Shown: positions 39,201-42,200 of the stretch, piece by piece | Layout of the letters: each line of letters starts with the position of its first letter | Numbering within the stretch: the first letter of the stretch is position 1 | Assembly (NCBI RefSeq): GCF_013167455.1 | Contig: NZ_CP038328.1 | Direction: 5' to 3' (one strand) | Length of the DNA stretch: 64,000 nt | From: Escherichia coli O157:H7 | GTDB lineage: Bacteria; Pseudomonadota; Gammaproteobacteria; Enterobacterales; Enterobacteriaceae | Position numbers: made by a program

Positions 39201-42200
39201 TTCTACGCCGACAGGCCAGGTGTTAGAGGTGTAGCTAAAACAGGCGACGCCAACGCCGCGGCGTAAATTGCCTTGCTGGTTCTGGCACTCTGCACGGCGT
39301 TTTTCCCATTCAAAGATTTTCCGGCCTTTTTCAAGACACTCCGGCAACCCTGCGCTGTAAATACGTTTGCCCGTGAGCGGATTAGCATCTCCTTCGCGTG
39401 AGGCGTTGCGTAAACGAATTTCAACAGGATCAATACCTAACGCTGTCGCGGCGTCATCAAGCATAGACTCAACGGCAAATACGACTTGTGGCGCGCCATA
39501 ACCACGCATCGCACCAGCCGAGGGGAGGTTGGTATAGCAGGTCTTTGAACTGTAAGCGTAGGCACAACGAGGATAAAGGTAAGCGACTTTATTTCCCCCT
39601 GCAGAAGCGATGGAGTGCCCGTGAGATACATAAGCGCCGGTGTTAGACAGAACATCCAGACTATAACCTTTCAATGTTCCGTCGCGGTTCACGCCCATTT
39701 GCCCGTCAATAGTAAAAGCGTGGCGGGTACGGGTTGCGAGGAAACACTCTTCACGGCTAAGGGAAACTTTCACCGGAATGCCGCCAAGCTTGCTGGTCAG
39801 GAATGCCGCCATTGGCTCTTCCAGTACATCCTGTTTATTACCAAAACCGCCACCGACAAATGTTTTGATGACTCGTACGCATGACCAGGGAATATCCAGC
39901 GCCTGACCAACCACGCGGCGAACAATGTGCGGGATCTGGGTGCTGGAAACGATGGTAATTCGCGAGTCATCCTCCATCCACGCCAGCGATGTTACGCTTT
40001 CCATGTGACAATGTTGAATAACGGGGGTCTGATAGTGCCCCTGTACCTGGTAGTCGGCGGCATCGATTGTTTGTTGGACATTGCCCGTCGACATCGTGCT
40101 TTGTTTCAGTAAATTGCCGCCGTTATGGATTGGTGCAGCGTCCTCTGCCAGCGCCGCTTCTGGCGTGGTGATAACGGGTAATTCTTCCCACTCAATGCTG
40201 ACCAATTGCGCCGCTTTTTCTGCCGTGAGTTCATCGCGGGCCACGACGATGGCAACGGCGTCACCATGATGACGAACATGGCGAGTTAGCAGTGCGCGAT
40301 CGGCGGTATCGCGCTTGTTTTCGTCAAGTGTCCATGCATGCCCAGCTGTAGCGAATGGGATATCAGGCACATCTTCCCAGGTAAAAATCGCCAGTACGCC
40401 TGGTAAACTTCTGGCTTGTTCATCATTAATACTTACGGCATAACCATGTGCGATAGGGCTACGTACATATTTCGCATAACACATGCCCGCCATAACATAA
40501 TCGTCAGTATATCGTGCCCGCCCGGTGACCTTAGCAATGGCATCAACGCGCATGCATGATTCACCCGTAGCGGTTGCTTCCCGCGCTTCCATAGAAATCC
40601 CCTCGATTTGAACATTTGGTTCTTATGGCAAAGATTTAGTCTAAGCAGGCAAGATTTACGCCAGAAACGGCGATAAGCGTTAAGGGAGGAAGGAAGTGTG
40701 ATGATGTTAAAAAAACACAGATATGATACGAAACAGGACCCTGAATAGGGGTAGTGATACGTATCAATATGAGTGGCGATAAAATCAATGTGATAAATTA
40801 GGATTATTACGCATCAGGATGGGAAATAGGGTAAAAAAGTCAGGAACTTCGATACCTCTACAGTGAATATTTTGCTGATGATACTTCCCTTTGCCAAATG
40901 AAATTAACCTCTTTCTCTATTACATCGTTTTTCCAGAAGCAAGAGATTGGGTATCAAGAGGCTGGCTGCTATGATATGGCGTCTTGTTTTTTAAGCGAGG
41001 AAAGATTTTGAGTGCGGGACGCCTGAATAAAAAATCTCTGGGTATCGTGATGTTGTTATCGGTTGGACTGCTTTTGGCGGGCTGTTCGGGTAGCAAATCA
41101 TCCGATACAGGAACGTATTCCGGCTCCGTTTACACCGTGAAACGGGGGGATACGCTATATCGTATTTCGCGCACCACGGGAACCAGCGTAAAAGAGCTGG
41201 CGCGACTGAACGGCATTTCCCCCCCTTACACCATTGAAGTTGGTCAGAAACTAAAACTGGGTGGGGCGAAAAGTAGCAGTAGTACACGTAAATCAACCGC
41301 CAAATCAACGACCAAAACCGCATCGGTTACACCGTCATCAGCGGTACCGAAATCTTCCTGGCCGCCAGTAGGGCAACGTTGTTGGTTATGGCCAACGACA
41401 GGGAAAGTTATCATGCCGTATTCGACAGCAGATGGCGGCAATAAAGGGATTGATATCTCAGCTCCACGGGGTACACCTATTTACGCCGCGGGTGCAGGAA
41501 AGGTGGTGTATGTGGGCAACCAGCTGCGTGGCTACGGTAATCTCATCATGATTAAACACAGTGAAGATTACATTACGGCTTACGCCCATAATGACACGAT
41601 GCTGGTAAATAATGGGCAAAGCGTGAAGGCTGGGCAAAAAATCGCCACCATGGGGAGCACGGATGCGGCATCTGTTCGCCTGCATTTCCAGATTCGTTAC
41701 CGTGCAACGGCAATTGATCCGCTACGTTACTTGCCGCCTCAGGGCAGCAAGCCAAAATGCTGATGGCGAATTAATCAGCAGTCAGCAGCGCGGCACTTGC
41801 TAAGAAGAGCGTAAGGTTTATAATGCCTTACGCATCTCGAAGCGGGCGTAGTTCAATGGTAGAACGAGAGCTTCCCAAGCTCTATACGAGGGTTCGATTC
41901 CCTTCGCCCGCTCCAATTTATCTTCACCTCATCAATCTGCCATTTTTGCTGTATCTGATTTTCTATATTATCTTAATTCAATCGCTTCAGACTTTTCGCA
42001 ATCTCTGTAACACTCCCCCATTTTTTTGTAAATAAAAAGCGTTTACGCAATGCAATCCTTTTGTAACAACCCAGGTAAAATACCTTATTTTCAAGTTGTT
42101 AAATAAGTGGTTATCTACGCTTTTAACAAACGATTGATGGAATATTTTATGAAAGGGAAATCTGCATTAACTCTTCTGCTCGCTGGTATATTTTCGTGCG

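Follow-up and report, generated by a model that had tools for sequence, protein, structure and literature searches.

Organisation of the glyU locus

The DNA analysed here, hereafter the window, is a stretch of 64,000 nucleotides from Escherichia coli O157:H7 (contig NZ_CP038328.1, assembly GCF_013167455.1), in which the tRNA gene glyU is preceded by actS and followed by the genes of ETT2 (Table 1). The actS-glyU order holds in about 80 Enterobacteriaceae loci, and the glyU sequence itself is identical in most of the loci numbered L005-L084. According to the annotation of a 100%-identical O157:H7 record, ETT2 is located between glyU and yqeG, beside actS (ygeR), and contains an SPI-1-like type III secretion set (sctC, sctV, sctN, sctQRSTU, a prgH-like gene and sctJ) together with ygeH and yqeHIJK. 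Its glycoside hydrolase family 15 (GH15) gene is split into two ORFs (42107-42712 and 42696-43754) and is intact in strain SCU-102. The GC content drops from ~0.50 to 0.33-0.42 past position 42000, ranges between 0.32 and 0.46 across the type III secretion region, and is 0.358 over positions 42058-69577, compared to ~0.50-0.54 upstream. The distal boundary of ETT2 was found at window-equivalent position 69577/69578, beyond the end of the window as the first-pass annotation had anticipated.

Table 1. Features identified around glyU and their positions in the window.
Feature	Position	Strand	Remarks
actS (ygeR)	41008..41763	+	Kept neighbour 5' of glyU; annotated in 100%-identical record
glyU sigma-70 promoter	41797..41824	+	-35 TTGCTA 41797-41802, 16-nt spacer, -10 TATAAT 41819-41824
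Inverted repeat GCGTAAGGT / TTATAAT / GCCTTACGC	41809..41833	+	Hairpin, loop = -10 hexamer
Predicted transcription start A	41830..41830	+	Six nt after -10 hexamer; inferred from promoter geometry
glyU, tRNA-Gly(CCC)	41842..41915	+	ARAGORN; Rfam tRNA 71.6 bits
Attachment core TCGATTCCCTTCGCCCGCTCCA	41894..41915	+	22 bp, used by integrase-bearing elements elsewhere; unoccupied here
glyU trailer, putative Rho-utilisation/termination zone	41916..42057	+	142 bp, 33% GC, common to ETT2-free E. coli
First ETT2-specific DNA	42058..42148	+	GH15 gene upstream region; proximal boundary 42057/42058
Glycoside hydrolase family 15 gene (ygeQ-type)	42149..43754	+	First ETT2 gene; annotated frameshifted in O157:H7 strain
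ETT2 type III secretion genes (sctC, sctV, sctN, others)	44346..64000	+	NZ_CP066753.1 annotation; on to window-equivalent 69577

ETT2 is already known to lie beside glyU; reports of this position, of its low GC content and of its decay date from 2001-2004 onwards, and several reviews cover them. The published ETT2 occupies the same locus, with actS-glyU, the GH15 gene, the SPI-1-like type III secretion genes, ygeH, yqeH-K and yqeG, and it also has a low GC content and several inactivated genes, with no difference in kind. The reviews describe it as 'adjacent to' or 'integrated into' glyU, without a base-level junction (PMC3977695, PMC11068852, PMC2808357, PMC4700944).

The glyU promoter and the hairpin around its -10 hexamer

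A near-consensus sigma-70 promoter had been proposed directly upstream of glyU from the sequence of the window, and a motif scan, the conservation between species and a placement statistic all support it. The two hexamers match the consensus at 10 of 12 positions, and the -10 hexamer ends 17 nt before the tRNA, in the correct orientation and placement. The bare count of sites matching at least 9 of 12 positions is uninformative, as three were found within 2 kb compared to 3.7 expected. Sites matching at least 10 of 12 positions arise by chance at a rate of 0.08 per kb per strand, and only 0.0013 such sites are expected on the correct strand within the 16-nt placement window before the tRNA. 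Among 72 distinct upstream sequences from ~80 Enterobacteriaceae species, the CTTG of the -35 region, the 16-nt spacing and the TATAAT are invariant or nearly so, whereas the DNA upstream of the -35 hexamer varies freely. In 66 of 80 loci, TATAAT begins 23 nt upstream of the tRNA. TTGCTA-16-TATAAT is a real, ordinary and well-conserved glyU promoter.

This promoter serves the single-gene glyU transcription unit. Judging from its geometry, transcription probably starts at the A at position 41830, and RNase P would trim a leader of ~12 nt. NAD capping implies that a transcript starts at A. The glyU RNA of E. coli reportedly carries an NAD cap (PMC13273102), which fits a primary transcript beginning with A. 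Typical E. coli tRNA sigma-70 promoters likewise pair a perfect -10 hexamer with only a partial -35 hexamer, and the short leader is trimmed by RNase P. Unlike in those promoters, the glyU -10 hexamer is enclosed by an inverted repeat that is kept across genera.

The hairpin formed by this inverted repeat is the centroid structure, at -16 kcal/mol. TATAAT is enclosed by a stem of at least 6 bp in 62 of 77 unique sequences, and the mean stem length around it is 7.8 bp, compared to 4.3 bp in shuffled sequences. When the register of the E. coli stem is applied, 75% of the cells are paired, against 27-50% in the slid controls. The stem arms of other genera differ in sequence from those of the E. 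coli hairpin, and the persistence of the hairpin despite changes in both arms might point to a structural role. We know of no described role for an inverted repeat around the glyU -10 hexamer. Two candidate functions were set aside. An intrinsic terminator of actS is ruled out on either strand, no T-run being present after the hairpin, and a protein-binding palindrome is unlikely, as the arms that pair in other genera are unrelated in sequence.

The attachment site in glyU and the start of ETT2

The last 22 bp of glyU serve as an attachment site for tyrosine-integrase elements, and this site is empty in O157:H7. In strain SCU-102, a 14.2-kb element encoding a Phage_integrase protein and a Phage_cap_E capsid protein is present at glyU, inserted between the CCA and the 142-bp trailer, and is flanked by a 22-bp direct repeat equivalent to positions 41894-41915. 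In a probe search, the matching places exceeded the records by 484, as would be expected if the glyU 3' end were duplicated in several hundred genomes. A 36-bp plasmid match (H40) was rejected as a phage attachment site; it consists of the glyU end and chromosomal flank beside an IS1, within an IS mosaic.

The absence of an integrase gene and of a direct repeat of the tRNA 3' end, reported in the first-pass annotation for the window, was confirmed and found to extend over the 16 kb past the window as far as yqeG, and thus to the distal end of the island. A 25-mer of the tRNA 3' end had no second match in the window with up to 3 mismatches, and the 22-mer core, allowing up to 5 mismatches, occurred only once in window-equivalent positions 1-80000. 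The longest shared k-mer was 11 nt, a length for which ~0.9 chance matches are estimated. No integrase or transposase is annotated between glyU and yqeG in the matching O157:H7 record. Similarly, no integrase remnant was detected in the island by tBLASTn with 44 proteins, which were two annotated SCU-102 integrases and long ORFs found beside glyU in other species, and which include proteins other than integrases. Pfam searches of nine short ORFs revealed no integrase domain, and seven of them had no family match at all; the largest unannotated gap is ~460 bp.

ETT2 resembles classical tRNA-integrated islands and satellites, such as P4-like elements and the SCU-102 element, in its position beside a tRNA gene and in a GC content below that of the chromosome. 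However, it has neither a tyrosine integrase by the tRNA nor a repeat of the tRNA 3' end at its far end, and it does not abut the CCA, whereas the SCU-102 element shows all three features at the same tRNA. ETT2 fills a variable gap between glyU and yqeG and shows no sign of having been inserted into the tRNA gene by an integrase.

The first-pass annotation had let the AT-rich island begin immediately after the tRNA CCA. The AT-richness does start there, with 33% GC in the first 142 bp, but the island probably does not. When 5,426 complete E. coli genomes were compared, 1,218 of them, including the B2 strain LF82, had actS, glyU and yqeG but no ETT2, and in these the CCA is followed by the same 142 bp (41916-42057) and by one uniform junction, 42057/69578. 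In the ETT2-free strains Rb-23 and LF82 (B2), the 142 bp are identical and are followed by the yqeG 3' flank, and the alignment with the empty site breaks at 42057/42058. ETT2-free genomes thus carry the same sequence directly after glyU, which is the outcome that the first-pass annotation had named as refuting its view. The junction appears to have been misplaced at the CCA, and ETT2-specific DNA begins at position 42058, 142 bp past the CCA and 91 bp upstream of the GH15 gene. The homology between the E. albertii and E. coli ETT2 begins at ~42075, no more than 17 bp from the B2 junction, and the 142-bp trailer has no homologue in E. albertii. The earlier description thus holds for the promoter, the missing integrase and repeat and the distal boundary, but not for the junction at the CCA. 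We infer that position 42058 is also the point at which the island originally started.

The gap between glyU and yqeG holds ETT2 or its distal genes not only in non-B2 E. coli but also in E. albertii and two further Escherichia lineages (PMC4700944), so that the ETT2-free allele may have arisen by deletion and need not represent an untouched site. In that case, 42057 would mark where a deletion ended, which need not coincide with the island edge, and a start of the island at the CCA is only weakened. A second ETT2-free allele, that of Escherichia sp. MOD1-EC7003, has its junction at 41985/69531 with a 5-bp ATCGC microhomology, and since the junctions of the two alleles differ, at most one of them is pristine. 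ETT2 might thus start at the first base after the CCA, with the 142 bp as its left end and the B2 allele as the scar of a deletion. The AT-richness beginning at 41916 agrees with this, as do the post-CCA sequences, which differ from the first base onwards among E. coli, E. albertii and the two other Escherichia lineages. The ETT2-related genes at the locus in all these lineages also make a secondary loss in B2 probable, and both ETT2-free junctions resemble illegitimate deletions, one blunt and the other with the ATCGC microhomology. We nevertheless regard a start at the CCA as rather unlikely. The 142 bp are missing from the E. albertii ETT2, whose homology starts so close to the B2 junction, and the excess of C over G described below stops at 42057 and resembles that of every other glyU trailer, unlike the composition of the island. 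Furthermore, no integrase is present beside the tRNA and no repeat at the distal end.

A putative Rho-dependent termination zone downstream of glyU

On the transcribed strand, the trailer (41916-42057) contains 23.9% C and 9.2% G. This excess of C over G stops at 42057, C and G both amounting to 14% in 42058..42148, and it runs counter to the G>C skew seen locally on the + strand. The predicted fold of the trailer has few stable local helices. No terminator-like site was found on the + strand between 41915 and 42596, and no hairpin with a T-run. Small ORFs were sought in 41764-42160 and none was credible. An Rfam scan of 41000-44500 with E values up to 1 gave the tRNA as the only match, so the trailer contains no known sRNA or riboswitch. 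When a phage collection was searched in distant mode with 41880-42149 as query, the matches were to the tRNA end only and none to the 142-bp trailer. In a BLAST search of the trailer against all fetched loci, the only match was a 70-bp segment, 77% identical, in Escherichia sp. MOD1-EC7003. An internal deletion of 81 bp of the trailer is tolerated in many strains, which counts against the termination role proposed below.

In other species, the first 100 nt after glyU also contain more C than G, in all 71 distinct flanks and in each of the 30 unrelated clusters, and the bias decays past ~100 nt. The trailer has the sequence features expected of a rut region, namely a C-rich, G-poor and little structured RNA over ~80 nt or more, with no earlier intrinsic terminator. 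Peters et al. 2009 reportedly described Rho-dependent termination downstream of E. coli stable RNAs. In Salmonella, Bossi et al. 2019 (PMC6797219) report a massive, NusG-independent read-through 3' of tRNA loci in a Rho Y80C mutant, and the legend of S7 Fig names glyU among the loci illustrated. The E. coli glyU locus shares with such Rho-terminated loci a strong promoter, the lack of an intrinsic terminator and, directly after the tRNA, some 100-140 nt rich in C and poor in G. The Salmonella flank is a different sequence from the E. coli trailer.

The trailer is most likely the Rho-dependent termination zone of glyU, as suggested by its composition and by the flanks in other species, and it would shield the island from tRNA read-through. 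It would load Rho and end the strong tRNA transcript before the co-oriented, AT-rich ETT2 genes. Such an unstructured trailer would belong functionally to glyU and not to the island.

The C-rich trailers could also be a by-product of integrative elements, left at glyU, for instance by arm-type integrase binding sites or by the composition of att flanks, after repeated insertion and deletion, and not a Rho site. Many flanks in other genera indeed belong to recurrent element families, and in TUM1881 an element remnant abuts the CCA after an IS1-mediated deletion. However, the bias is present in all the unrelated clusters, including flanks without any recognisable element, it follows the strand of the tRNA transcript and fades within ~100 nt, and in Salmonella, Rho is documented to end transcription 3' of tRNA loci (PMC6797219). 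This origin of the bias is therefore unlikely.

It is highly improbable that the MOD1-EC7003 allele is the pristine one, ETT2 having been inserted between 41985 and 41986 with a 5-bp ATCGC target duplication (the island then extending from 41986 to window-equivalent 69530) and the B2 allele being a later deletion: ATCGC is indeed present at both ends (...AATCGC/TTCAGAC and ...TATATCGC/AAATTG) and in the MOD1-EC7003 site (...CTATCGC/AAATTG), but this junction occurs in none of the 5,426 E. coli genomes, a 5-bp microhomology is just as typical of a deletion, the common 70 bp are just 77% identical, and neither a transposase nor terminal inverted repeats were seen.

Taken as a whole, the account of a promoter, a glyU gene with an empty attachment site, a Rho-loading trailer and an ETT2 edge at 42057/42058 appears probable to us. 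More tentatively, and with somewhat less confidence than an even chance would warrant, two further proposals can be made jointly. Any DNA located after glyU might have to supply a C-rich, G-poor Rho-loading zone of ~100 nt in which the tRNA transcript ends, and the hairpin around the -10 hexamer might have an as yet undescribed structural role, in RNA or in DNA, where actS meets glyU, for example as a protective 3' stem-loop for the actS mRNA after RNase P cleavage. If a Rho-loading zone is required alike of native DNA, of ETT2-side DNA and of the ends of many unrelated integrative elements, elements targeting glyU would bring along their own transcriptional insulator next to the att site.

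For delimiting or deleting ETT2, or for using glyU as an island marker, the coordinates 42057/42058 and 69577/69578 should be used instead of the CCA. The base-level junction is a useful correction to a start at the CCA, and the same tRNA gene is a true and frequently used attachment site in other strains. The C-rich trailers and the hairpin around the -10 hexamer are relevant to how transcription from strong tRNA promoters is prevented from entering silenced foreign DNA.

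The glyU locus and its promoter

The comparison record of strain ECP19-598 (L004; E. coli O157:H7, NZ_CP066753.1) covers window-equivalent positions 40001 to 80000, i.e. window coordinates continued past 64000. A single base separates it from the window over the common 24 kb, and the two are 100% identical over 40900-43800. Its gene order is xdhA, actS (ygeR), tRNA-Gly, a frameshifted glycoside hydrolase 15 (GH15) gene, a GhoT/OrtT-type toxin gene and an HTH gene, followed by sctC, sctV, sctN, sctQRSTU, a prgH-like gene, sctJ, ygeH, ygeG and yqeK/J/I/H, and at the distal end by yqeG, yqeF and kduI. 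The type III secretion-system island ETT2 between glyU and yqeG has already been published. The GH15 gene (glucoamylase-like, ygeQ-type; 42149-43754) is frameshifted in O157:H7 into ORFs at 42107-42712 and 42696-43754; SCU-102 and many other strains have it unbroken (536 aa). Two further genes of the annotated O157:H7 record show known ETT2 decay, with sctT carrying an internal stop and the prgH/eprH-type gene both a frameshift and an internal stop (54497-55264 and 57509-58689).

Judged by its sequence conservation, the promoter that the first-pass annotation had placed before glyU is real and strongly conserved. The number of sites with at least 9/12 matches in 2 kb proves nothing, since the 3 observed do not exceed the shuffled expectation of 3.7. 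Sites with at least 10/12 matches occur at 0.08 per kb per strand under a Markov model of the local DNA, and 0.0013 are expected in the 16-nt placement window before the tRNA. An ActS scan with one genome per species yielded 80 loci (Escherichia, Salmonella, Citrobacter, Enterobacter, Klebsiella, Kosakonia, Kluyvera, Leclercia, Cedecea, Buttiauxella and others), in nearly all of which glyU lies ~80 bp past actS; in 66 of the 80, the first base of TATAAT precedes the tRNA by 23 nt. When the 72 unique upstream sequences were anchored on the nearest TATAAT, the CTTG of the -35 region was almost invariant and the 16-nt spacing fixed, with TTGCCA (27), TTGTCA (16), TTGCTA (9) and TTGTAT (7) as -35 hexamers and freely variable sequence further upstream. 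NAD capping implies initiation with A, and the likely transcription start is A 41830, six nucleotides after the -10. The glyU RNA of E. coli has been reported to be NAD-capped (PMC13273102).

Features of the glyU region (window coordinates unless stated; L005 is a fetched comparison locus)
Feature	Position and sequence	Strand	Basis
Sigma-70 promoter of glyU	-35 TTGCTA 41797-41802; 16-nt spacer; -10 TATAAT 41819-41824	+	Promoter scan, 10/12 match
Inverted repeat around the glyU -10	Arms GCGTAAGGT 41809-41817 and GCCTTACGC 41825-41833; loop TTATAAT		Centroid structure of intergenic RNA, -16 kcal/mol
glyU, tRNA-Gly(CCC)	41842-41915	+	ARAGORN (sole tRNA in window); Rfam agrees
ATCGC at the MOD1-EC7003 join	L005 10974-10979; O157 window 41980-41985 and window-equivalent 69526-69530		Present at both O157 sites

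The inverted repeat constitutes a small new lead. In 62 of 77 unique Enterobacteriaceae sequences the -10 is enclosed by a stem of 6 bp or longer; stem length averages 7.8 bp, compared to 4.3 bp for shuffled arms. Other genera pair with different sequences and registers (CGAGGAGT/GCTCCTCG, GCCCCGG/CCGGGGC, GTGAAGGC/GCCTTCAC) and extend the stem up to 13 bp; in the E. coli register 75% of cells were paired, compared to 27-50% in slid controls. A function as intrinsic terminator was ruled out, as no T-run follows on either strand. Because the predicted start falls inside the 3' arm, the hairpin can form only in actS read-through RNA or in DNA. One idea is that it serves as a protective 3' stem-loop of the actS mRNA after RNase P cleavage at the tRNA.

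The proximal edge of ETT2

GC content is ~0.50-0.54 up to 42000 and 0.32-0.46 thereafter. According to the first-pass annotation, the AT-rich island began directly after the CCA at the tRNA 3' end. The 142 bp following the CCA (41916-42057, hereafter the trailer) are indeed AT-rich (33% GC), but they probably do not belong to the island DNA, with ETT2-specific sequence starting at 42058, as ETT2-free strains carry the same sequence downstream of glyU; the first-pass annotation had itself named such a finding as one that would refute its junction. In strain Rb-23, actS is followed by glyU and then yqeG; the 142 bp past the CCA correspond to the trailer, and from the next base on the sequence is that of the yqeG 3' flank (L004 29578, window-equivalent 69578). 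The same arrangement is present in the phylogroup B2 strain LF82. It fits the reported lack of ETT2 in B2/ST131 (PMC7058095). A 160-bp probe spanning the junction was at least 80% covered in 1,218 of 5,426 complete E. coli genomes, and the junction is therefore a uniform one. It is blunt, with ...GCAATGCAATC joined directly to GT(C/T)ATG... and no direct repeat. Since ETT2-free genomes share the flanks and this uniform blunt junction, the ETT2-specific DNA can be delimited from 42058 to window-equivalent 69577 (27.5 kb, 35.8% GC), and the distal boundary lies past 64000, as had been anticipated.

A discontinuity near 42058 is independently supported by the E. albertii type strain, whose homology to the E. 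coli island sets in only at ~42075 (75 bp before the GH15 gene starts), and whose 257 bp from the tRNA to this point bear no relation to the trailer of E. coli. The trailer gave no phage match. The effective ETT2 edge probably lies at 42058-42075. A start at the CCA itself, to which the low GC content of the trailer had pointed, is rather unlikely. Escherichia sp. MOD1-EC7003 has another ETT2-free allele, in which 41985 and 69531 meet at a 5-bp microhomology, ATCGC; this could be a microhomology-mediated deletion or a target duplication. This type of junction was found in no E. coli genome searched, and an island edge at 41985/41986 is very improbable. The two empty alleles cannot both be pristine, and it may be that each is a deletion scar.

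Four lineages have ETT2-related genes between glyU and yqeG. Such genes are known at this position in non-B2 E. coli and E. albertii (PMC4700944; also seen in the fetched loci), and two further Escherichia lineages lack T3SS structural genes but contain glyU, a ygeH-like gene, yqeJ/I/H and yqeG. In non-coli Escherichia loci (L087-L092, L095-L098), the ygeH-like regulator and yqeJ/I/H show only 68-80% DNA identity to O157, compared to 93% for the actS/glyU flank of L087; this regulator module may predate the secretion genes or be distinct from them. The presence of ETT2-related genes in four lineages favours an old acquisition of ETT2 that would have been secondarily lost in B2. Such a loss runs against the older view, reportedly that of Ren et al. 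2004, that B2 never had ETT2.

Integration events at glyU

No second copy of the tRNA 3' end was detected in the window (25-mer, up to 3 mismatches) or in 80 kb (22-mer, up to 5 mismatches), and the longest k-mer common to the tRNA and the island is 11 nt, for which we estimate ~0.9 chance matches. No integrase or transposase is annotated from glyU to yqeG in L004, and tBLASTn with 44 proteins (the two annotated SCU-102 integrases and long ORFs adjoining glyU in other species) revealed no integrase remnant. Nine short ORFs lack an integrase domain, and the largest unannotated gap is ~460 bp. Everything noticed in the first-pass annotation is present, and the absence of an integrase and of a tRNA-end repeat extends past the window to the far end of the island; ETT2 is without sign of integrase-mediated insertion.

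ETT2 thus lacks each of the three defining features tested for a classical integrase-mediated island, of which the glyU element of SCU-102 is an example. This 14.2-kb element lies between the CCA and the trailer (locus L085, 2690-16864; also L100 and L101), is bounded by a 22-bp direct repeat, TCGATTCCCTTCGCCCGCTCCA, identical to window 41894-41915, and encodes a Phage_integrase-domain protein near its right end and a Phage_cap_E capsid protein. Its tyrosine integrase, second short integrase-domain gene and phage major capsid protein give it the look of a phage satellite that encodes its own capsid. Members of the family are also present in other Escherichia, Enterobacter and Citrobacter, and the left-end sequence (GAATCTCCCCAGGTGGAG...) follows the CCA in Enterobacter, Citrobacter and one more Escherichia lineage. 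In TUM1881, a remnant of this element abuts the CCA, and through IS1 the trailer has been lost together with almost the whole of ETT2 as far as yqeH. A 116-bp probe spanning the CCA was uninterrupted in 3,752 of 5,426 genomes; its matching places exceeded the records by 484, consistent with a second tRNA-end copy in several hundred genomes.

A 36-bp piece comprising the last 18 bp of glyU and the first 18 bp of the E. coli trailer lies beside IS1 in an IS mosaic on plasmid pF1053-2 (L086 5001-5036) and occurs at 58 plasmid places; it is chromosomal island-end DNA carried onto plasmids. E. albertii NBRC 107761 (L006 2400-2860) keeps the glyU promoter in a Citrobacter-like form. After an insert of 70 nt comes another tRNA-Gly(CCC), which shares only 74% identity with glyU, and then 257 unrelated bp before the ETT2 homology. 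Its tRNA gene seems to have been replaced.

Composition of the glyU trailer

On the tRNA-transcript strand the trailer contains 23.9% C and 9.2% G. The C>G bias is found in every 78-nt window from 41916, is gone at ~42057 (C = G = 14% over 42058-42149), and runs counter to the G>C skew that the + strand shows over the island. No stem followed by a T-run was found after glyU, and the trailer fold contains no dominant local hairpin. The sequences that follow the CCA in other species show no relation to the trailer, beginning with the very first base, and belong to many families. C nevertheless exceeded G in the first 100 nt of all 71 distinct flanks (mean C 26.1, G 14.7); the excess decays within ~100 nt, and 500-1500 nt downstream the same flanks show C 23.0 and G 24.4. 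Clustering resolved 30 mutually unrelated flank types (L005-L098 and window 41916-42015), with C>G in the first 100 nt in 30/30.

The best reading of this composition, together with the evidence from a related species, is that the trailer is a putative Rho-loading and termination zone of glyU. In Salmonella, a Rho Y80C mutant shows massive, NusG-independent read-through past tRNA loci, and the legend of S7 Fig in that study (PMC6797219) names glyU among the illustrated loci. The trailer would load Rho, end the glyU transcript and keep the strong tRNA promoter from transcribing ETT2; as glyU and the ETT2 genes are co-oriented, it would shield the island. Its full length is not essential, since many strains carry an internal 81-bp deletion (41926-42006). 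Rough sampling places the short form in several hundred genomes. In E. coli O6:H16 2011EL-1370-2 (L093 2556-2720) the trailer has this deletion, and IS1 at ~42136 removed ETT2 up to the yqeG flank.

That ETT2-specific DNA begins at 42058 and not at the CCA is a useful correction, and the trailer would belong to the tRNA rather than to ETT2. The C>G rule is a small new lead, which suggests that any DNA placed after glyU would have to supply a Rho-loading zone.
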